From assembly GCA_017983435.1 (NCBI GenBank), contig JAGOBM010000005.1, positions 28,469 through 92,468 on the forward strand: a stretch of DNA of 64,000 nucleotides, written 5' to 3'. The position numbers and the translations under genes were made by a program. Numbering within the stretch: position 1 is the first letter of the stretch; every line of letters begins with the position of its first letter. This document shows, piece after piece, positions 2,816 to 56,320 of the stretch. This DNA is from Candidatus Moraniibacteriota bacterium. GTDB lineage: Bacteria; Patescibacteriota; Minisyncoccia; Moranbacterales; UBA1568. The notes beneath the pieces are model-generated. The model was not told where the DNA came from. It worked only from the letters and a program-made list of their open reading frames with translations, and did not search any database.

Positions 2816-3877
2816 TTGGAACAAGACATGACCACTATGCCGAAAGCCAAGATAGAGACAATCGTCGCCGCAGGGAAGCAAGCGCTTGAGGCCGTCGCCG
2901 ATGCGGCTGGTTTGGCTGTGTGGGAAACCGCCTATCTCGGCCGCAAGAGCGAGCTCAATGACGTGCTCAAAGGGCTCAAGGATCTCTCTCCCGAAGAGAA
3001 GCGTACCGTCGGTCCGGCAGCTCATGAGGCCAAGCAGGCGCTCATGGCGAGCTATACCGCGGCCGCTCTGCGCATCGAGCGCGAGAGTATCGATTGGGAG
3101 CGCGAGTGGATCGACGTCACGGCTCCGGGCGAGCGTCAACCGGCCGGCCATCTCCATCCGATTACGATTCTCGAGCATGAGATCGCCGATATCTTCGCTT
3201 CGCTCGGATTCACCGTCGAGGATGGTCCGGAGCTCGATACCGAGCACAACAACTTCGATTCGCTCAATTTTCCCAAAGATCATCCGGCACGCGATATGCA
3301 GGATACGTTTTGGGTGAAGTCTGAGAAGCGCTGGCAGCATACCTATATTCCGCGCACGCATACGTCGACGGTCCAGGTCCGCTATATGCAGGAGCACAAG
3401 CCGCCGGTGCGCATCATCGTGCCGGGACGCATCTTCCGCAACGAGGCGACCGATGCTTCGCATGAGCATACCTTCCATCAGTTCGAGTGCCTCATGGTCG
3501 ACGAGCCGGGCAAGGTGACCGTCGCGACCTTCAAGTATGTCGCCGAGACCTTCTTCAGCCGCTTCTTCGGCAAGAAAGTCGATATCCGCCTCCGGCCGAG
3601 CTTCTTCCCATTCACCGAGCCATCATTTGAATTCGATATTTCCTGCATCATCTGCGAGGCCAAGGGCTGCTCGGTCTGCAAGGGGACCGGCTGGCTCGAG
3701 ATCGGCGGCGCCGGTATGGTGAATCAGAAGGTCTTCGAAGCGGTCGGCTACAAGCGCGGTGCGTATCAGGGTTTCGCCTGGGGCTTCGGGCTGACACGGC
3801 TCGCCATGATGAAATACAAGATCGCGGATATCCGGCTCCTCATGAGCGGCGATCTCAGATTCTTGAAACAATTTTAA
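2816..3877 (+). CDS. pheS: Phenylalanyl-tRNA synthetase alpha subunit
   Basis: Class II aaRS core with FPKDHPARDMQDTFW and GFGLTRLAMMKY motifs characteristic of PheS. Confidence 0.95.
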   Translation: MEQDMTTMPKAKIETIVAAGKQALEAVADAAGLAVWETAYLGRKSELNDVLKGLKDLSPEEKRTVGPAAHEAKQALMASYTAAALRIERESIDWEREWIDVTAPGERQPAGHLHPITILEHEIADIFASLGFTVEDGPELDTEHNNFDSLNFPKDHPARDMQDTFWVKSEKRWQHTYIPRTHTSTVQVRYMQEHKPPVRIIVPGRIFRNEATDASHEHTFHQFECLMVDEPGKVTVATFKYVAETFFSRFFGKKVDIRLRPSFFPFTEPSFEFDISCIICEAKGCSVCKGTGWLEIGGAGMVNQKVFEAVGYKRGAYQGFAWGFGLTRLAMMKYKIADIRLLMSGDLRFLKQF

Positions 3878-3956
3878 GGGCAGATTTGTTAGTTTATAGT
3901 TTATTAGTTTTGTTAGAAAGAAGACTATAAGCTATAGACTCCATACACTATAGACT

Positions 3957-6326
3957 ATGAAATACAGTTATCATTGGCTCAAAGAACTTTCAGGGACCAA
4001 GAAGCCGGCCGAGCGGGTGGCTGATTTGCTCATGCGGCATGCTTTCGAAGTTGAGGGAGTGGAGAGTTATCCCCACGGACTCGATGGTGTGCTGACGGGA
4101 CGGGTGCTCTCAGTGGTCCCGCATCCGAACGCGGATCGTCTGCGGGTCGCGCAGGTCGAGCTCGGAAAGAATGACGTCCGACAGATCGTCTGCGGCGCAC
4201 CCAATCTCGCTGAGGGACAGAAAGTCGTCGTCGTGCTGCCGGGAGCGAGTCTGCCAGGCGGTATCGAGATCCGGGCGGCGGAGATCCGCGGTGTCCAGTC
4301 GAACGGCATGATCTGCTCCGAGAAGGAGCTCGGGATCGGCGACGGACATACCGGTATCCTCGTGCTGCCGGATGAGGCTCCGATCGGATCAGAATTCGCC
4401 AAGCTCGTCGGATTGTCCGATACTATACTCGATGTGAAGATACTGGCCGACCGTGGATCTGATGCGCTGTCGTACGAAGGGTTGGCGAGGGAAATCGCCG
4501 CGCTCGACGGTCATGCTCCGCAGTTTGCTGAGACCAAGGCTAAGCCGTTCAAGATTCCTTCCTACAATCGGGCACCCAAAGTGCAGATCGCGGATAAGAA
4601 AGCTTGCCGCCGGTATGTCGGACTGCTCTTCAAGGATGTCGAGGTCGGGGAGTCGCCGCTCTGGCTCAAGACGAAGCTTCTGGTCTCCGGTCTCCGCCCG
4701 ATCAACAACATCGTCGATATCACGAACTATCTCATGCTCCGTACGGGCCAGCCGCTGCATGCCTTCGATGCGGACACGCTCTCGGGCGGCGTGCATATCC
4801 GCATGGCCAAGAAAGGTGAGAAGCTCGAACTCCTGACCGGAGAGAAGAAATCTCTGTCGACGGATGATCTAGTCATCGCTGATGCCAAGCATCCGCTCGC
4901 GCTCGCCGGCATCATGGGCGGCAAACACTCGGGAGTGACCGCTGAGACCAAGGATATCTTTTTGGAAATCGCGAATTTCGACGGCGCCACGCTCCGCCGG
5001 ACACGGATCCGTCATGGACTCGCGACCGATGCCAGCTATCGTTTTGAACGCAATCTCGATCCGAATCTGCCGATAGAGGTGGCCCGCGAAGCCGCTGAGC
5101 TCATCCGCGAACTTGCGGGGGGCAAGTTGGCCGGGGCGCGCGACGAATATCCGGAGAAGCGCAAAGAGTGGAAGATTGAGCTCGCGCTCTCCCGCGTCGA
5201 AGGGGTGCTCGGGGTCAAAGTCCCTATCTTCGAAGTCGTACAGTATCTGGCGCTCCAGGGGCTCACCGTCCGCAAGCAGAATGGCAAGGATGCACTCCTG
5301 GTGACGATCCCGACCCGTCGGCCGGACCTCCGGGATGAGTGGGATCTGATCGAAGAGATCGGTCGTATGCGCGGCTATGACAAAGTGTCTCCGGTAGCGC
5401 CCCTGCTTCCTCTCGTGGCTGTGCCCGGGAATCCCGTGAAGCATTTCGAGCGGAATACCAAAGAGCGGCTCGCACATGCCGGTTTCACGGAGATCATGAC
5501 GTATTCTTTCTATGGGGTCCGTGATATCGAGGCTTTCGGACTCGAGGAGGCCGGGCACGTCGAGCTGGCCAATCCGCTCAATCCTGATCAGACGCATCTG
5601 CGGAGGAGCCTGGTACCGAGCCTCTTGCGCAAGGTGAAAGAGAATCTCCGACATACGGATACCTTCCGGATTTTCGAATGGGAGAGCGTCTTCGAGAAGT
5701 GGAAGAAACTCGAGGTCCGGGAAGCGAAGATGCTCGTGATCGCCTCGGTGTCCCGTGATGGTGGAGTCAGGGAATTCGCTCGGCTCAAAGGGTCGATCGA
5801 GAATCTGCTCGAGAGCCTCCATATCGGAGGAGCGGAATTCGTGCCGCATGCAGCTCCGGAATCGGGCGATGAGTGGCACCGCGTGCAGAGCGCTGATATC
5901 CTGGTCGGCGGCCGGAAGCTCGGCACTATCGGGACGCTCATGCCGTTTATCATGAAGAACTTCGGGATCGCTTCCGGTATGGCAGTCGCGGTACTCGATA
6001 CGGAAGCGCTTCGATCCTCGGTTGAGACTGAGACCGTGTTCCGCCCGCTGCCGCGTTTTCCATTTGCCGTGCGTGATATCTCGCTCGTATTCGAGAAGAA
6101 AGTCGAGAGCGGATCGGTGGTGAGACGCATGCTGGATGCCGGAGCCCCGCTCCTCCGTTCGGCAGAGCTTTTCGATATCTTCGAGAAAGAGGGGAGTCGC
6201 AGCCTGGCTTTCCATCTCTCTTTCGGGGCTGACGAGCGGACACTGACGAGTGATGAGATGGATGCTGCCTTCGAGCGTATCGTCTCGGAAGTCGAGCATG
6301 AGCTCGGAGGCCGGCTCAATCGGTAG
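3957..6326 (+). CDS. pheT: Phenylalanyl-tRNA synthetase beta subunit
   Basis: 789 aa; N-terminus MKYSYHWLKEL typical of PheT; tRNA-binding, B3/B4 and B5 regions; adjacent to pheS. Confidence 0.95.
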   Translation: MKYSYHWLKELSGTKKPAERVADLLMRHAFEVEGVESYPHGLDGVLTGRVLSVVPHPNADRLRVAQVELGKNDVRQIVCGAPNLAEGQKVVVVLPGASLPGGIEIRAAEIRGVQSNGMICSEKELGIGDGHTGILVLPDEAPIGSEFAKLVGLSDTILDVKILADRGSDALSYEGLAREIAALDGHAPQFAETKAKPFKIPSYNRAPKVQIADKKACRRYVGLLFKDVEVGESPLWLKTKLLVSGLRPINNIVDITNYLMLRTGQPLHAFDADTLSGGVHIRMAKKGEKLELLTGEKKSLSTDDLVIADAKHPLALAGIMGGKHSGVTAETKDIFLEIANFDGATLRRTRIRHGLATDASYRFERNLDPNLPIEVAREAAELIRELAGGKLAGARDEYPEKRKEWKIELALSRVEGVLGVKVPIFEVVQYLALQGLTVRKQNGKDALLVTIPTRRPDLRDEWDLIEEIGRMRGYDKVSPVAPLLPLVAVPGNPVKHFERNTKERLAHAGFTEIMTYSFYGVRDIEAFGLEEAGHVELANPLNPDQTHLRRSLVPSLLRKVKENLRHTDTFRIFEWESVFEKWKKLEVREAKMLVIASVSRDGGVREFARLKGSIENLLESLHIGGAEFVPHAAPESGDEWHRVQSADILVGGRKLGTIGTLMPFIMKNFGIASGMAVAVLDTEALRSSVETETVFRPLPRFPFAVRDISLVFEKKVESGSVVRRMLDAGAPLLRSAELFDIFEKEGSRSLAFHLSFGADERTLTSDEMDAAFERIVSEVEHELGGRLNR

Positions 6327-6433: not shown

Positions 6434-6819
6434 CTTTTCTAAGACAGGTTGGATTGCCGCGCTTTGGAGCCTTTTTTGGCTTCTTTGTGAGGAAAGTCCG
6501 GACACTCCCCATCGCTTGCGATGGAAGGGTAATGGGTAACTCCCATACGCCGCGAGGCGCGAGGTGCGAACAGAAACGGCCGATTCCGAAAGGGATCGGA
6601 TATCCGGGTGCAAATCCGGATAAGCCTCTCTGGTAACAGGGAGGGTGAAACGGCTAAATCCTTACCTGAGTGCAAGGTCGAGCTCCCGTTCATATTGCAG
6701 CTGCGATTGAGTGGGAGAGAACCGCACGGATCTGGCTGGCAACAGTCAGGCAAGAGAAATGGCAATCGTCCCGCTTCGGCGGGATACAGAATCCGGCTTA
6801 TAGGCCTGTCTTAGAAAAG
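6434..6819 (+). ncRNA. rnpB: RNase P RNA (bacterial type A)
   Basis: Contains universally conserved GAGGAAAGTCCGGAC (P4), GGGTGAAACGG, and ACAGAATCCGGCTTATAGG (P4 3' strand, cf. E. coli ACAGAACCCGGCUUAUCGG); 15-bp P1 helix cttttctaagacagg / cctgtcttagaaaag closes the molecule; about 386 nt. Confidence 0.9.
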
Positions 6820-6855
6820 CATCATCGAAACGAATCCTTGATCATCTCTGTCCGT

Positions 6856-8280
6856 ATGAAACGATCAGAAATATTCTTCAGCGCTCTGCAGCTCCCGGTG
6901 GATCTCCTCATGATCTCGCTCGCGGCGCTGAGCGCGTACTATGTCCGCAATATTCCGCAGATCCTCGCGCTTCGGCCGAAGCTCTACGATATCACGCTCT
7001 CCGGTTTCATGGAGGTGATTTTTTTCGTGGCGCCGATATTCGTCCTCATCTTCGCGCTCGAAGGACTCTACCAGATGCGGACCACGCGTCGCTTCTGGCA
7101 GGAAGCCTACCGGGTCTTCAAAGCGACCTCGCTCGTGCTTGTCATCGTCATCGTGGTGATCTTCCTCAAGCGCGAATGGTTCTCGTCCCGCTTCATCATC
7201 CTCGCGGGCTGGGGATTCACCGTCCTCTATATCACGCTCGGCCGCTATCTCATCGCCCGTGTCCAGCGCTATCACCTCCTCAAGAAGGGGACGGGTGTCC
7301 ACCGCGTGCTCCTCATCGGAACCAACGGCAAGATGCAGGCGATGAATCAGTACCTGACAGCGCATCGTGAGCTCGGCTACAAGATCGTCGCGCAGGTCTC
7401 CGGTGTCTCGCTCCATGAGATCAAAGCGATCCGGGCCGAACGGGGTATCGACGAGGTCATCGTCTGCGATCCGACCCTGACCGATGATGAACATGAGAAA
7501 CTCCTCGATTACTGTCAGATCAACAATATCGGCTATCGTTTCATCCCGACGACGCTCCAGGCGTCTCGTATCTCCATGCAGGTCGGCATCCTGAACGGCG
7601 AACCGATCATCGAGTACCAGCACACGCCGCTCGACGGCTGGGGCAAGGTCATGAAACGGGCCTTCGATCTCTTTGCCGGATCTATCCTGACCCTCATTGC
7701 GCTGCCGATCATGGGTATCATCGCGCTCCTCATCCGCATCGAAGACGGTACCGGACCGATCATCTACAAGAATGAGCGTGTCGGTCAGGACGGCAAGAAA
7801 TTCTATGTGTACAAGTTCCGGTATATGCTCTGGAAGCATTGTATCGCCAAGGAGAACCCGCATCTCGAGGCGGCGCTGGCTTTTGAGAAGCAGTTGATCG
7901 CCGAGCGCAATACGCGCGAAGGCGGCGTGCTGTACAAGATTAAGGATGACCCACGCAAGATGAAGGTCGGAGCCTTTATCGAACGTTATTCGCTCGATGA
8001 GCTGCCGCAGTTCTTCAATGTCCTCCGTGGAGAGATGAGTCTCGTGGGCCCGCGCCCGCATCAGCAGCGCGAGGTCGACAAATACAGCGAATACCATCGC
8101 CGGCTCCTCACCATCAAACCGGGCATCACCGGTATGGCACAGGTCTCCGGACGCTCTGATCTGCCGTTCGAAGACGAGTACCGCCTCGATGTCTACTATA
8201 TCGAGAACTGGTCGCTCTGGCTCGATATCATCCTCTGCCTCAAGACCTTCACCGCGCTCATCCGTCGTCGGAAAAATTAA
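6856..8280 (+). CDS. Undecaprenyl-phosphate sugar phosphotransferase (WbaP/WcaJ-like initiating glycosyltransferase)
   Basis: N-terminal multi-TM region, central linker, C-terminal bacterial sugar-transferase domain (KFRYM..., DELPQFFNVLRGEMSLVGPRP). Start moved from ORF-track 6670 to ATG 6856 because 6670-6819 is rnpB. Confidence 0.85.
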   Translation: MKRSEIFFSALQLPVDLLMISLAALSAYYVRNIPQILALRPKLYDITLSGFMEVIFFVAPIFVLIFALEGLYQMRTTRRFWQEAYRVFKATSLVLVIVIVVIFLKREWFSSRFIILAGWGFTVLYITLGRYLIARVQRYHLLKKGTGVHRVLLIGTNGKMQAMNQYLTAHRELGYKIVAQVSGVSLHEIKAIRAERGIDEVIVCDPTLTDDEHEKLLDYCQINNIGYRFIPTTLQASRISMQVGILNGEPIIEYQHTPLDGWGKVMKRAFDLFAGSILTLIALPIMGIIALLIRIEDGTGPIIYKNERVGQDGKKFYVYKFRYMLWKHCIAKENPHLEAALAFEKQLIAERNTREGGVLYKIKDDPRKMKVGAFIERYSLDELPQFFNVLRGEMSLVGPRPHQQREVDKYSEYHRRLLTIKPGITGMAQVSGRSDLPFEDEYRLDVYYIENWSLWLDIILCLKTFTALIRRRKN

Positions 8281-8298: not shown

Positions 8299-8640
8299 AT
8301 GGTTCTCCTCAAATGGGTTGTCTCGGCGCTCGCATTTCTCGCTCTGCCGTATATCGTGCCGGGTATCAGCGTCAAAGGGTTCAGCACGGCGTTGCTCCTC
8401 GCTTTTCTCTGGGGTCTGATCGGTATTACGGTCAAGCCGATACTGGTCATCCTCACCTTGCCGATCAATCTTTTGACCTTCGGTATCTTCACCTTTGTCA
8501 TCAATGGATTCCTCCTCTGGATGCTCGGCGGATTCATCAAGGGATTCGATGTGAAGACGTTTACCGCCGCGCTGCTCGGAGCGGTCGTCCTCTCGATCAT
8601 CCACACGCTCTCACACTGGGCCCTCAACCGGGCGGATTAA
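8299..8640 (+). CDS. DUF360 / phage-holin-4-like small membrane protein
   Basis: 113 aa, four predicted TM helices, sequence pattern typical of the YvlD/DUF360 (holin family IV) membrane protein family. Confidence 0.6.
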   Translation: MVLLKWVVSALAFLALPYIVPGISVKGFSTALLLAFLWGLIGITVKPILVILTLPINLLTFGIFTFVINGFLLWMLGGFIKGFDVKTFTAALLGAVVLSIIHTLSHWALNRAD

Positions 8641-8684
8641 TTTTAGCGGTCCGACCGCTAAAAAACTTCGAAGAATATACGGGA

Positions 8685-8716
8685 AATCCCAGTCTGACAG
8701 ACTGGGATTTTTATTA
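8685..8716 (+). terminator. Intrinsic terminator (aaatcccagtctgacagactgggattttta)
   Basis: 12-bp perfect stem followed by T-run, downstream of the DUF360 gene. Confidence 0.65.
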
Positions 8717-8841
8717 TCAAAAAAGCATAAGAAAATCCTGGGTCACGGGAAAGATTTTTTCGATGCACTACGCTTCCGAGCGTACAGCAAGAAAAAAATT
8801 TCTCGTGGCCTGGGATTTTTCCGAATATTTCTCCTGAGGAT

Positions 8842-8996
8842 ACGAAAGCAGATTTTTTCTGTGCCAATTGAAATCTCTTTCCAAGGGGGAAACAATCTTT
8901 TCCTCGCTATCGCCTCGGAAGTCTCGGGCAGCAGAAAAAATTGTTTCCCCCTTGGAAAGAGACCCTATTCGATGGCGCAGAAAAAAATCTACTTTC
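8842..8996 (+). repeat. Hairpin element copy A (conserved core cctcgctatcgcctcggaagtctcgggcagcag; internal 23-bp perfect inverted repeat 8874-8896 / 8940-8962; outer stem cgaaagcagatttttt / aaaaaatctactttcg)
   Basis: Direct sequence comparison with copy B at 48075-48161: the core and the outer stem base are shared, the stem extensions are unrelated but perfectly paired in both. Confidence 0.8.
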
Positions 8997-9001
8997 GCAT
9001 C

Positions 9002-9030
9002 TTGCTCCCTCACTCAAAACAGTGTAAACT
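9002..9030 (+). promoter_or_regulatory. Putative promoter (TTGCTC - 17 nt - TGTAAACT) for the 9058 gene
   Basis: -35-like and extended -10-like hexamers with 17-nt spacing, starting 6 nt after hairpin element A. Confidence 0.4.
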
Positions 9031-45192: not shown

Positions 45193-45209
45193 GTTCTCCT
45201 GCTTGACTA

Positions 45210-45238
45210 TTGACAAAAGAGCTAAAATAAGCTATTAT
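45210..45238 (+). promoter_or_regulatory. Sigma-70 promoter TTGACA - 17 nt - TATTAT
   Basis: Consensus -35 and near-consensus -10 with a 17-nt spacer; -35 context cTTGACAAAAGAG shared with the 48250 promoter. Confidence 0.65.
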
Positions 45239-45915: not shown

Positions 45916-46117
45916 TCGAGGATCTCGAGCTCTTCCTTCCGCGCGAGGGGAGAGCCGAGATGTCCGATTCGAGTGTTCCTTGATAATTCGGCATCAGAAA
46001 GGAGTTGTCTTATGAGACAGTTCAGGCTTTGGATTACCCATCGCTGGGCTGCCTCATGTGGTAGCCCGCCTTGGTTCATTGAGGTTTTTCAAATTTCAAT
46101 CTGCGAAGGAGGTTATC

Positions 46118-47875
46118 ATGGCAGATCTTAATGTACGTTCTGGGATTCACCGGAAAGAATCCAGTCCTTTGGATGGATTCGAGCAGAGACGTGGTCTCAA
46201 GCCGAGAACTCTGGTTCTCGGTCTGGTCCTGATTGTCGTCTCGCTTTTTGCCTGCTATCGCTTCGGCGTATTCGATGAGACCGTCTCGGCGCAAGCCCCG
46301 GTTGCCGTCGCGCAGGTAGTAACACCGGTTCCCGTCAGTGTAGCGCCGCCGCCATCGCCGTTGGTAGTGGCCAAAGAGCCCGCCTCAAGCGTTGCTCCGT
46401 CGCCGACCTTGATCGAGAAAAGCTATGTTGTCCAGTCGGGTGATACGCTCTCTCGCAAGTTCCCGAAAGATTGGAAAGCGGTCTGCGAGACGAATAGTCT
46501 CAAGGATTGCAGCCTGATCCGTGAAGGACGAGAGCTCAAACTGCCGGGAACGGTGGAAACGAGCCAGGTCGTCCGGAAGCCTGTCGAAAGACTGGCCGAC
46601 GGATCGCTGCCGATAGCCCGTCTCAATATCGACCCGTATCGCCCGTATGCCAGCGCCGCCAATGATCGCAAGATCCTGGCAGCCCAAGGCTATTCCGCCG
46701 CAGAGATCGAGGAATTCTCGACGCTCGTGGCGCAGGGTGGTTGTGTCGAAGAAATGTTTGCCAAGGGTACGCAGTTTCCGTGGATGTCGCATGGCAATGC
46801 CAAGGTCGTCAAAAGCCTGGTCGCCACGTGGCAGAAACCGGAAGCCGGTCGGGTGTGTCAGCTTTCGAGCGGTCGCACCATCGTCATACTCGAAAAGTGT
46901 GGCAATCTGACCGAAACAGCGGCTCGTCCCATCGTCGTCCCGAAGGAACCGGAACCTCAAGCAGAACCGGAACCTGAACCTGAAGATGCTCCGGTACTCC
47001 CGGTGCATGCCAAGGAGGGCGACGTCATCCCGTGCAATCTGCAGGCCGGTGCCGGTGTCTACCAGAATCGCGTCTACCAAGGCGCCTGGGGCTACGGTGA
47101 GGGTCTCTGCTATATCTTCAAGAACGGCGAGTGGCAACACGGACCGGGCTTCTATGCTATGGCAGGCGGAGGCGAATCGCGCATGTCTACCTATTCCAAC
47201 AAGGAAACAGGCTATGGTCTGCAGTACGGCATCCAGCGCAATTGGCTGGGTGATCGCGGTCCGGCGACCTTCGAATTGAAGGGACGTCTGCTCCGTGACC
47301 ATATGTGGGGATCGAACAAAGAAGGCTACTGGGTTGACCAGAAAGGCTACAAGTTCGGCCTCTACGGGTCGTATTACGAGCGTCATGGCGAGAATCTGGT
47401 CGGCGCAATCGGTGAATACTGGCAGAGCTTCGGTCAGACGGTCAAATCGTCTTGGTCGGGCCAACAAGTCCAGAATCGCGGCAGCGTGGGCGTCTATGGC
47501 GTCTACGAACACCCGCTTACCGAAGACAATGATTGGCGTCTGCGCTGGATCGCCGGGGTGAACTACACGAATTGGGATGAACAATCCTGGTTCCGCGTCA
47601 CTCCCGAGTTCCGCTACAAAGAATGGCTGATGTTCGGGCCGCAACTCTCGGTCCCGATCGGAATCAGCAGTCTCAATCAACCCTTGACCTCCGGTGATCT
47701 GACCACGGTCGGCGCGTTCGTTCGTGTCGAGCTGGGGACAGAAATCCGCAAGGCTGATGCCGAAAACAGGGAAGAGCAAGTCGAGTATGTACCGGCGGCT
47801 GAGGTAGCAATACCTATCCATCCGGTGACACTTATCGAAGCTCCGCCCGCAGAAGCTGTTGCGCCGGCTGAATAA
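46118..47875 (+). CDS. LysM-domain membrane protein with large uncharacterised C-terminal domain
   Basis: Cytoplasmic N-terminus, one TM, P/V/A linker, LysM-like YVVQSGDTLSRKF...LKLPG, then a 400-aa G/Y/W-rich domain; start trimmed to Met 46118 (GAAGGAGG RBS). Confidence 0.6.
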   Translation: MADLNVRSGIHRKESSPLDGFEQRRGLKPRTLVLGLVLIVVSLFACYRFGVFDETVSAQAPVAVAQVVTPVPVSVAPPPSPLVVAKEPASSVAPSPTLIEKSYVVQSGDTLSRKFPKDWKAVCETNSLKDCSLIREGRELKLPGTVETSQVVRKPVERLADGSLPIARLNIDPYRPYASAANDRKILAAQGYSAAEIEEFSTLVAQGGCVEEMFAKGTQFPWMSHGNAKVVKSLVATWQKPEAGRVCQLSSGRTIVILEKCGNLTETAARPIVVPKEPEPQAEPEPEPEDAPVLPVHAKEGDVIPCNLQAGAGVYQNRVYQGAWGYGEGLCYIFKNGEWQHGPGFYAMAGGGESRMSTYSNKETGYGLQYGIQRNWLGDRGPATFELKGRLLRDHMWGSNKEGYWVDQKGYKFGLYGSYYERHGENLVGAIGEYWQSFGQTVKSSWSGQQVQNRGSVGVYGVYEHPLTEDNDWRLRWIAGVNYTNWDEQSWFRVTPEFRYKEWLMFGPQLSVPIGISSLNQPLTSGDLTTVGAFVRVELGTEIRKADAENREEQVEYVPAAEVAIPIHPVTLIEAPPAEAVAPAE

Positions 47876-48000
47876 CGCCGGTGCGACAGGAATCGTCTGA
47901 TCAATCTCAGGTCTCTAAAAAGGGTATCCGCCAACGTGAAAACGCGCGAGATATCGGCCAGCTCTGAGAGAATGATTCCGCTTCGCAAGATGCAGATTTG

Positions 48001-48045
48001 AAGGGACGAGTTGCCAATGTGCAGCCCGTCCCTTTCACTTTTTCC
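48001..48045 (+). terminator. Terminator-like hairpin (aagggacg...cgtccctt + tcactttttcc)
   Basis: 8-bp stem followed by T-rich run, 125 nt downstream of the LysM gene. Confidence 0.5.
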
Positions 48046-48074
48046 GGTAAGGATTTCTGTGCAGGAGTTGATTC

Positions 48075-48161
48075 CAGCCGAGCTGCGAAAGTAGATTTTT
48101 TCCTTGCTATCGCCTCGGAAGTCTCGGGCATCAGAAAAAACCTACTTTCGCAGCTCGGCTG
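48075..48161 (+). repeat. Hairpin element copy B (perfect 20-bp stem cagccgagctgcgaaagtag / ctactttcgcagctcggctg around core ccttgctatcgcctcggaagtctcgggcatcag)
   Basis: The core differs from copy A at 2 of about 32 positions; the stem base cgaaagtagatttttt is shared, the outer 11 bp are unique to B. Confidence 0.8.
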
Positions 48162-48249
48162 AAACCCTCGGGCGTCGAAAGAAATCTCTTTTGGTCCAGA
48201 CTCAGTCGGAACATGTATTTTTTGGCTTTTTAGAGGGTATTTTGGACTC

Positions 48250-48278
48250 TTGACAAAAGAGGCGTTTAGGTGTACTAT
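48250..48278 (+). promoter_or_regulatory. Sigma-70 promoter TTGACA - 17 nt - TGTACTAT; upstream block ggactcttgacaaaa
   Basis: Consensus -35 with extended -10; the 15-mer ggactcttgacaaaa is identical at 55299-55313. Confidence 0.65.
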
Positions 48279-48396
48279 GGGGAGTCATCAATAAAAACAA
48301 GAGATGGCACAGGTTTCAAGTGTAGTACCTTAAGCGCTCGGTGATCCATCCGGGTCTCGAGCACATCGATTGCGCTTTTCTCAATAGGAGGTCATC

Positions 48397-48783
48397 ATGC
48401 GCAAATTGTTCTCTCTCTTCATTGCCTTCCTCGGTTTTGCTTCTTTGGTCCAGGCTGAAGTGTTCGCTGCCAACGGTGGTAGCATCACGGCTACCAAGCA
48501 GGGGGATGGCGTTCTTGTCACCGTCGAAGGATTTGCGGCCGCCAAGTTGGTCCATTTCCGCGGTCAAGGCGACAAGGATGGTTTCATTCATCCCGTTGCC
48601 ATGACCAATGGCAAGGCCGTGCTGGAAAACGTCGCCAAGTTCGGCGGCCGCTTCCAGGTGATGGACGCCAGTGGCAAGTGGCTCCTCATCACCCCGACGG
48701 GCAATCCCTACAAGATGGTCGGGGTTACCCAGGAATGTAAAAAATCCAACAAGGGCTGCGCCCTTGAGGTGACGCTGAAGTAG
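48397..48783 (+). CDS. Small secreted protein (128 aa, Sec signal peptide), hypothetical
   Basis: N-terminal MRKLFSLFIAFLGFASLVQA-EV signal; AGGAGG RBS. Confidence 0.55.
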   Translation: MRKLFSLFIAFLGFASLVQAEVFAANGGSITATKQGDGVLVTVEGFAAAKLVHFRGQGDKDGFIHPVAMTNGKAVLENVAKFGGRFQVMDASGKWLLITPTGNPYKMVGVTQECKKSNKGCALEVTLK

Positions 48784-52612: not shown

Positions 52613-52830
52613 GAAGAACTTCTAGTCAGCCACTTCTAAAAAATATCGTCCCCCTCCCGTCAAGCTATCCCTTCGGGAGTCTCTCGTCCGTCCAGCGACG
52701 GACTTCATTGCGTGAAATCCAAGTCATCCGTCATTCTGACGGAACCATGCTGACTTGGCTTTCAAGCCTCCCGAAAAGATACTTGAGGAAGAGGGACTGG
52801 GTTACTGGTATTTTTTTGTTTGGTGTTTTT

Positions 52831-53017
52831 AGACCCTTTCCCGCAAAGAATTTTGCACCATGTCGCTTTCAAGTCGGAAACCGTTTCCGACACGAGCGCC
52901 GCTAGAAAATTTCCGTGACGCGAGCGTAGTCGTAGCTGGACAGGAAATTTCATCGGCGTGACGTTGGAAAACGGTCGACTGAAAGTGCGGGGCAAAATTC
53001 TTTGCGGGAAAGGGTCT
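52831..53017. repeat. 187-bp MITE-like palindromic element with perfect 26-bp terminal inverted repeats (agaccctttcccgcaaagaattttgc)
   Basis: TIR 52831-52856 is the exact reverse complement of 52992-53017; the interior is itself a nested set of inverted and direct repeats (for example gtcggaaaccgtttccgac); no ORF. Confidence 0.7.
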
Positions 53018-53084
53018 GAGAACTGATAAAAATACCAAGAACTTCATCAGGATTTTGACTGTGTCCTCAGACAATAAAAAAACT

Positions 53085-55249: not shown

Positions 55250-55304
55250 TTTTCTTAGAGAATAAGCAGTCCGTCTCTCCTATTGTACCCTGAGGAATGG
55301 ACTC

Positions 55305-55333
55305 TTGACAAAAAATTGTTTATTTGCTATTAT
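55305..55333 (+). promoter_or_regulatory. Sigma-70 promoter TTGACA - 17 nt - TATTAT with upstream block ggactcttgacaaaa
   Basis: Consensus spacing; identical 15-mer to the 48244 promoter. Confidence 0.65.
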
Positions 55334-55348
55334 ATTATGTTTTAATAG

Positions 55349-56320
55349 GTGAACATATTGCATATGCGATTTGCGAATTTTTGGCTTCATAAAGGGATTT
55401 TTCTGGGTGCCAGTCTGATGGTGCTCGTGATCGCTCCGTTTGCCGTTTTTGGCGGCAGTCAGACAATTTATGTCGATAAGTCGAATTCCGGTTCCGAGGA
55501 CGGGTCGAAATCCCATCCGTATGACACGATTGAAGAGGCTCTCAAGCGGGCTGACAACGGCGATGAAGTCGTGGTGGCCAAGGGGACCTATAAGGAGAAT
55601 GTCAACGTGCCGAAGGAAGTCTGGCTGCGCGGACAGAAGAGCAACAACGATGATGTGATCATCGAAGCGAAGAATGATGAGAAGCCGGCCGTGGAGATGA
55701 AGCACGGCAGCAAGCTCTCCTATCTCACCGTCAAGGGCGGACGCCATGGCGTGCGTATCCTCGAAGACAGCAAGGCACATATCTACAATGTCCATATCAA
55801 GGACAGCGAGCGCGATGGTATCCATGTCGATGCCGCCGAAGTTTCGAAGAAGAAGCGAGTGTTGATCGACAAAGTCGAGATCGAGAAGAGCGATCGGGCT
55901 GGTATCTACGCTGAGAAGCGTCTGATCACGGTGATCGATTCGGATATCCATGACAATCGTGGTGATGGTATCGACCTCGCGGCCGGTACGCATGCTTGGT
56001 TTGAGAAGAGCCAGTTCAACAGCAATCGCGGCAGCGGCGCCAAGCTGGTGCTCGACGGTGCGAGCATCTGGTCCAAGAGCAATGAATTCAAGAACAATAA
56101 GCGCGAAGGTCTCGAGATCAGCTCGTTTGGCGCGCAGGGGACCATCGGTTTCAAGAAGGCCAAGATTTCCGGCAATGACCACTACGGAGTCGCCCGTCTC
56201 GGCAAGACTGCCCAGGGGATGAAGATGTTCGGCAATGTCGATTTTGGCACCGGCGTCAATGGCAGCTCGTTCAGTGTCAATACTTTGGGTGATATCTCAC
56301 CAGTACTCTCGGTACGGTAA
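55349..56320 (+). CDS. Membrane-anchored right-handed parallel beta-helix (pectin-lyase-fold / DUF1565-like) surface protein
   Basis: N-terminal TM; TIYVDKSNSGSEDGSKSHPYDTIEEALKRADNGDEVVVAKGTYKENV typical of DUF1565 / beta-helix proteins; repeated GxxG..I.N beta-helix turns. Start GTG 55349 or ATG 55364. Confidence 0.65.
   Translation: MNILHMRFANFWLHKGIFLGASLMVLVIAPFAVFGGSQTIYVDKSNSGSEDGSKSHPYDTIEEALKRADNGDEVVVAKGTYKENVNVPKEVWLRGQKSNNDDVIIEAKNDEKPAVEMKHGSKLSYLTVKGGRHGVRILEDSKAHIYNVHIKDSERDGIHVDAAEVSKKKRVLIDKVEIEKSDRAGIYAEKRLITVIDSDIHDNRGDGIDLAAGTHAWFEKSQFNSNRGSGAKLVLDGASIWSKSNEFKNNKREGLEISSFGAQGTIGFKKAKISGNDHYGVARLGKTAQGMKMFGNVDFGTGVNGSSFSVNTLGDISPVLSVR

Follow-up and report, generated by a model that had tools for sequence, protein, structure and literature searches.

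Patescibacteria (CPR) genomes, at about 1 Mb, are highly compact and are regarded as repeat-poor. In the window, i.e. the whole 64,000-nt stretch of Candidatus Moraniibacteriota DNA that was analysed, the median gap between genes was 44 nt by rough ORF calling, and the longest gap was the 521-nt region at 47876-48396, which the initial annotation had already singled out as unusually long. This gap contains a hairpin, referred to here as copy B, that resembles another hairpin of the window, copy A. The question raised by the locus is whether copy B belongs to the gene behind it, as was implied when the hairpin was tied to a promoter and secreted-protein genes or to a long leader, or whether it is an element of another kind. 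The features of the gap are the following.

48000 to 48044, + strand: intrinsic-terminator-like hairpin with U-tract, of the upstream gene 46058..47875; conserved in L026, L030, L044 and L045
48050 to 48074, + strand: putative spacer and outer left arm in degenerate form (AGGATTTCTGTGCAGGAGTTGATTC), homologous to AGATTTTTTCTGTGCCAATTGAAA of copy A by alignment
48075 to 48161, + strand: copy B hairpin, left arm 48075-48103 and right arm 48135-48161; covariance-model match of 105.8 bits
48104 to 48134, + strand: asymmetric conserved core TTGCTATCGCCTCGGAAGTCTCGGGCATCAG of copy B, which sets the orientation of the element
48167 to 48205, + strand: remnant 3' half of a second element, consisting of the core end CTCGGGCGTCG and the right arm AAAGAAATCTCTTTTGGTCCAGACTCAG
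48250 to 48278, + strand: sigma-70-type promoter TTGACA-17-TACTAT of gene 48397..48783, with 10 of 12 consensus positions

The perfect 20-bp stem proposed for 48075-48161 was recovered exactly. The sequence CAGCCGAGCTGCGAAAGTAG at 48075-48094 has its exact reverse complement at 48142-48161, a pair that was produced by none of 100 shuffles, and the 20-bp stem is perfect in both its outer and its inner part. Pairing reaches further, to 48072-48164, where arms of 31 nt (48072-48102 and 48134-48164) are 94% complementary through the T/A tracts. Compared with shuffled sequence, the RNA folding z-scores of copy B were -6.0 for the + strand and -9.2 for the - strand, and those of DNA folding were -6.8 and -7.9 on the two strands. 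Inside the core, the mini-helix GCCU.GG/CU.GGGC can pair on the + strand only. When the block 48095-48140 was compared with copy A (8895-8940), 93% identity was found, with three differences in 46 nt, two of them in the unpaired core; the two loop differences reported before were thus essentially right.

On its right side copy B is followed by the remnant at 48167-48205, which matches the outer right arm of copy A in alignments and is represented at the same position in locus L030 by a complete element, E2. The fragment gaaatctcttt, previously connected with an arm of copy A, is indeed present (48181-48191), but it is the right half of the truncated second element. Since this second element is complete in L030, the fragment is best described as a truncated neighbour with no functional link to copy A. 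The remnant on the left side, 48050-48074, is an alignment-based assignment and is weaker than the other parts.

Copy A is more complex than copy B and has a neighbour of a second subfamily, F2.

8731 to 8820, + strand: F2 hairpin with similar arms and the core GATGCACTACGCTTCCGAGCGTACAGCAAG
8837 to 9003, + strand: copy A, a nested composite in which family arms (8842-8859 / 8980-8999) enclose an inner hairpin (8874-8962)

The inner hairpin of copy A is perfect and carries the core at 8904-8934. Over 8837-9003 about 68 bp are paired, with a folding energy of -89 kcal/mol and a z-score of -11.7, and the string "ctactttcgca" after copy A is explained by the enclosing arms of the composite, which correspond to the inner arms of the family. 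The same nested architecture was found in the ortholog L021 and in locus L016 of the CAZOKB01 assembly. As the flanks of copy B align with the outer arms of copy A, the two copies are homologous over ~165 nt, so that the homology proposed earlier holds and goes beyond the loop alone. The F2 core GATGCACTACGCTTCCGAGCGTACAGCAAG shares ~70% identity with the F1 core read as its reverse complement; the F2 hairpin bears an apical 6-bp mini-hairpin with a UCCG loop. F2 adjoins F1 in seven loci and the relative orientation is constant in all of them. Apical mini-stems covary among subfamilies (TACGCT/AGCGTA, TACGTT/AACGTA and TATGTT/AACATA).

Between the holin-family gene 8299..8640 and this cluster of three hairpin elements stand two strong terminator-like hairpins in succession (8641-8663 and 8682-8712). 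Elsewhere in the window, an RNase P RNA (class A, 134.8 bits) at 6441-6816 overlaps the 5' end of a mechanically called 536-aa ORF (6670..8280), and the true start of that gene must therefore be further downstream.

Copy B is one member of a small dispersed family of ~90-nt palindromic intergenic repeats. The family unit is 85-95 nt long, and some copies are nested composites of ~165 nt. A search with a covariance model built from 13 copies gave 37 distinct copies, all from genomes and metagenomes of related Candidatus Moranbacteria (CPR) and at least 13 of them from one MAG. When 185,579 species genomes were scanned for the 20-nt core TCGCCTCGGAAGTCTCGGGC, 13 copies were found in a single MAG, CAZOKB01; the remaining four matches, in Desulfuromonadales, Alphaproteobacteria and Wallbacteria, had no hairpin around any of them and look like chance. 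A slightly degenerate core matched 20 metagenome loci, and all 20 had the hairpin. Copy number is low, at ~15-20 per MAG of roughly 1 Mb, and no copy of the repeat was present in viral contigs, phage records or plasmid records. All copies are intergenic, often clustered, paired or nested, and their orientation to the neighbouring genes is co-oriented in 10, antisense in 12 and mixed in the others.

Contigs of GCA_020047555.1 and of sister assemblies are identical to the window, whose seryl-tRNA synthetase (SerRS) groups with Candidatus Moranbacteria. The MAG that carries most of the exact core matches (GCA_964580285.1; CAZOKB01, loci L001-L017) is titled 'uncultured Bdellovibrionales bacterium'. 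This label is probably wrong, since its SerRS is 87% identical to that of the window and the nearest named relatives are Moranbacteria; synteny and the repeat family concur. In more distant Moranbacteria, with SerRS ~80% identical, no element was found within +-10 kb of the syntenic region. As far as the limited sampling goes, the family thus appears confined to a small clade.

The terminator-like hairpin noted at 48001-48045 is present: a hairpin at 48000-48035, followed by CACUUUUU, folds together with the U-tract (-21.6 kcal/mol, z -3.0) and is conserved in the orthologs. The promoter noted downstream of copy B was likewise confirmed as TTGACA-17-TACTAT at 48250-48278, and it is conserved in orthologs whether the element is present or absent. 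Copy B follows the conserved terminator and precedes the -35 box by 88 nt. This arrangement of an upstream terminator and a conserved downstream promoter most likely places it outside the 48397 mRNA, and the sequence thus indicates that it is probably not part of the leader of that gene.

Two familiar roles of hairpins were rejected for copy B. An intrinsic terminator is a GC-rich stem with a U-tract immediately after it; the stem of copy B is followed by GAAACCC with no U-tract, and a terminator scan gave no match at the element. A regulatory RNA of the 5' leader is found within the transcript, ahead of the start codon, and always has the orientation of the regulated gene. A riboswitch or attenuator does not agree with a promoter 88 nt downstream of copy B, nor with a family in which 10 copies are co-oriented with their neighbours and 12 are antisense.

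The wider claim, that the element acts in cis (as upstream DNA or leader) and controls the downstream secreted-protein gene together with a shared promoter, draws on the position of both window copies, which precede predicted exported-protein genes in the same orientation as these, and on the promoter flank GGACTCTTGACAAAA, which recurs at a third exported-protein gene (at 48244, and at 55299-55313 preceding the signal-peptide gene 55349..56320). However, the third gene (55349) has the promoter and no element, strain L044 retains promoter and gene without copy B, and the element itself is separated from the -35 box and placed behind a terminator. Further copies flank housekeeping genes in either orientation, among them those in the rplK-rplA/dcd region and at a uvrC-like gene, so the implied tie of the hairpin to promoter, secreted-protein genes or a long leader was not supported. 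We give cis control hardly any credence. Copy B most likely has no dedicated regulatory role at its own locus and is at most an added structural barrier or insulator between terminator and promoter. For annotation, this means that such hairpins should not each be taken as gene-specific regulators.

The promoter sequences show a pattern of their own. The sequence TTGACAAAAGAG occurs at 48250 and again at 45210, and three promoter-like sites (48244-48259, 55299-55314 and 45204-45219) have a common extended sequence around the -35 box. All three precede genes encoding proteins with N-terminal hydrophobic segments, and the common sequence may be a shared UP-element or regulator site.

An alignment of the copies showed three layers. 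The outer stem, of 7-12 bp, is variable among copies; the inner arms, (A/G)CGAAAGCAGATTTTYCC and GGRAAAAYCTCTTTCG(C), include a conserved bulged C; and the asymmetric core TYGCTATCGCCTCGGAAGTCTCGGGCAKCAG is common to the copies. Conservation thus decreases from core to inner arm to outer arm, which hints at a function of the loop, although the invariance of the core is partly due to ascertainment, as most copies were retrieved by an exact core match and those retrieved by the covariance model only (L017, L019 and L020) have other cores. The outer stems of different copies are nevertheless related, following the patterns (G)TCTC-YCYGGRCC-A or CAGCYSRGCT, and from these common patterns the repeat unit is concluded to be the whole hairpin of ~90 nt.

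The outer stems differ among copies yet stay complementary. In the alignment 94.7% of the cells were paired, versus 33-62% when the partner columns were slid by 1-3 positions, and two-sided changes were seen in 18 of the 22 main-stem pairs; the observed values were reached by none of 500 shuffles. Pairwise comparisons gave the same picture at different distances. The window and L045 differ by one compensated C:G to T:A change, one compensated 1-bp indel and one uncompensated change; two compensated changes separate L007 from L019, one separates L009 from L022, and about ten separate copy A from L021. An attempt to assign the strand from wobble pairs was contradictory, since the core mini-helix favours the + strand and the main stem, with 17 G.U versus 35 A.C pairs on the core strand, slightly favours the - strand.

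Covariation of this strength would be expected of a structured RNA, in which changes in the stem reflect selection on RNA pairing. Such an RNA could be a multi-copy small RNA or a module of 3' or 5' UTRs, with the long stem displaying the core to a binding protein or serving as an RNase III substrate. The core mini-helix speaks for it in several respects: its U:G and G:U pairs function on the + strand alone, and in six copies a G-to-A variant converts G:U to A:U and keeps the pairing. The covarying apical mini-hairpins of the subfamilies point the same way, as do copies that lie within 3' UTRs, e.g. downstream of rplA in L019 and L007; being located between stop codon and terminator, those copies are probably transcribed. 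Against an RNA stands the excess of A.C over G.U in the main stem on the core strand, together with the orientation of the copies, which is random relative to the neighbouring genes, and the position of copy B between a terminator and a promoter. Neither a conserved promoter nor a terminator belongs to the element itself, its stem is not followed by a U-tract, and perfect stems of 20-30 bp go beyond what selection for RNA stability needs. With Rfam 15 (gathering and E-value thresholds; the whole window and both loci), no family was matched, and only sub-threshold matches to miRNA-precursor models appeared. Matches to such models are generic for long hairpins. In L030 and L026, moreover, the core at the orthologous site points the other way. 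The evidence on DNA versus RNA is mixed, and we regard a structured RNA as unlikely while giving it some weight.

Comparison of the orthologous site among related strains revealed four configurations, in all of which the terminator and the promoter are conserved. The window and L045 have copy B and the half element. L030, with flanks 90-94% identical to the window, has the complete second element next to an element in which the core is inverted and the outer stem differs. L026 is a hybrid of the two, with the core inverted, and in L044 copy B is absent and a hairpin with a different core is present. L044 (CAZOKB010000001.1) and L045 (JGI 3300045379 Ga0490030_000059) are 99.6% identical over 17.5 kb of flank and differ across an intergenic block of ~250 nt. 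The L045 block is 87-95% identical to that of the window, whereas the adjoining genes are only ~77% identical, which suggests recombinational replacement of a block and not simple insertion. The difference resembles block replacement or rearrangement, with no clean filled versus empty site, and the sequences suggest that intergenic cassettes may be exchanged between species by recombination. Lineage-specific hairpin repeats that fill the longest gaps here and vary in near-identical strains are a marker of genome dynamics in these uncultivated bacteria.

The element could also be read as DNA that a host protein binds in double-stranded or cruciform form, the protein being, e.g., nucleoid-associated or a factor of replication or segregation. 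The BIME-1/RIP elements of E. coli, for instance, contain an IHF site. In the present family, the putative binding site would be the core, which has T6/A6 tracts on its flanks; CTCGGAAG / CTTCCGAG are common to the F1 and F2 cores, and placement is indifferent to orientation. On the other hand, the same arms can carry discrete cores of other kinds (those of F2, of the L020/L019 variant and of L044), copies are few per genome and some are lost between strains, and no protein partner is known. A protein-binding site of this kind appears to us very unlikely.

We favour, with moderate confidence, the reading that copy B is a palindromic DNA repeat similar to REP/BIME or MITE elements, that template switching within the hairpin keeps its arms complementary, and that it has no dedicated role here. 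The repeats would spread or reshuffle at the DNA level, through some transposase or through recombination between copies. Arm complementarity would be maintained mechanically, as replication corrects the quasipalindromes, and not through selection acting on individual pairs. The asymmetric core with the inner arms may be the part recognised by the propagating or binding machinery. Template switching is known to perfect quasipalindromes, and hairpin stems can arise and be preserved through it [PMC7202029, PMC8794818].

An unrelated, near-perfect hairpin of ~200 nt was observed at 52825-53023, with 35-nt arms, a folding energy of -113 kcal/mol, a z-score of -11.9 and no Rfam family. Its syntenic ortholog is located in CAZOKB01 locus L003 at ~3700-3960, downstream of an ADP-forming acetyl-CoA-synthetase-like gene. 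The centre is 80% identical between the two, and the outer stems are different yet complementary. This hairpin could represent a second hairpin family or a novel ncRNA. That it shows the same pattern as the repeat family argues for a general mutational process and not for selection specific to one element.

A more active role for the elements can be envisaged, in which a hairpin-specific CPR machinery recognises the invariant core that a long self-correcting stem presents, and the elements are functional units instead of passive repeats. The machinery might be a structure-targeting system of ssDNA transposition or recombination with the loops of its own hairpins as insertion sites, and such insertion would explain the nested copies; or it might yield a multi-copy RNA processed from the hairpins. 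We consider such a machinery quite unlikely.

The family behaves in a REP/BIME/REPIN- or MITE-like manner but departs from what defines REP/REPIN, MITE, attC and terminators. Integron attC sites have R''/R' boxes (RYYYAAC ... GTTRRRY) and stand in a gene-cassette array. This class was rejected, as no AAC/GTT ends were seen in the alignment and the copies are dispersed among housekeeping genes.

Likeness to MITEs such as Correia and ERIC lies in a length of ~100-170 nt, terminal inverted repeats, non-coding sequence and intergenic position, as well as in nested and truncated copies. Presence also varies between strains, with a difference at the copy B site that looks like block replacement or rearrangement. 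ERIC has a conserved central inverted repeat. The 34 copies inspected for target-site duplications, as expected of a MITE, had no flanking direct repeats. A scan of all collected loci with the arm motif, at partial genome coverage, gave no gene-sized unit bounded by inverted arms that could be a parent insertion sequence with matching ends, and the ORFs between inverted copies were housekeeping genes. In contrast to MITEs, the Moranbacteria family has inverted repeats that vary at their outer ends, yet are complementary there within each copy, and the gradient of conservation from core to inner to outer arm is the reverse of that of typical MITEs.

With REP, BIME and REPIN elements the family shares that its members are short intergenic palindromic repeats with predicted ssDNA or RNA hairpins [PMC3116915, PMC2817692, PMC3733652], that they are found alone, in inverted pairs or clustered, often just 3' of genes, and that several subfamilies exist per genome. 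In the loose sense the repeat is REP/BIME-like: it is multi-copy, exclusively intergenic and found in both orientations, with pairs of fixed relative orientation. The unit differs, being one hairpin of 85-95 nt where REPs have 20-40 nt. In REPs and REPINs, one end of the 20-40-nt palindrome bears a tetranucleotide tag, either GTAG or CGTC [PMC3733652]. This tag was not present in the 37 aligned copies, whose ends are variable (e.g. GTCTC.../...GAGAC or CAGCC...), and GTAG appears in the arm of copy B only as a variant of the GCAG of the family. A REPIN consists of two conserved REPs, inverted, around a less conserved spacer [PMC3116915]. In the Moranbacteria repeat conservation is highest in the loop and lowest at the stem ends, which is the reverse, with the caveat that most copies were retrieved by their exact core. 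Copies are counted in tens versus hundreds for REPINs, and the host is a CPR bacterium. Where REP/REPIN elements are mobilised by a RAYT, the genome has the gene for this Y1/HUH transposase, flanked by repeats. A tblastn search of 327 kb with E. coli RayT and IS200 TnpA, a weak test with approximate query sequences, gave no match below E = 0.4.

Quasipalindrome correction is a mutational mechanism and no element family, and it leaves the dispersal and the conserved asymmetric core unexplained. It does account for the concerted reverse-complement changes of the arms, the perfect long stems and the compensated indels without selection on each pair [PMC7202029, PMC8794818]. The family is a clean natural case of inverted-repeat arms that evolve in concert, with compensated substitutions and indels between orthologs, and it bears on how much RNA 'covariation support' DNA-level template switching alone could produce.
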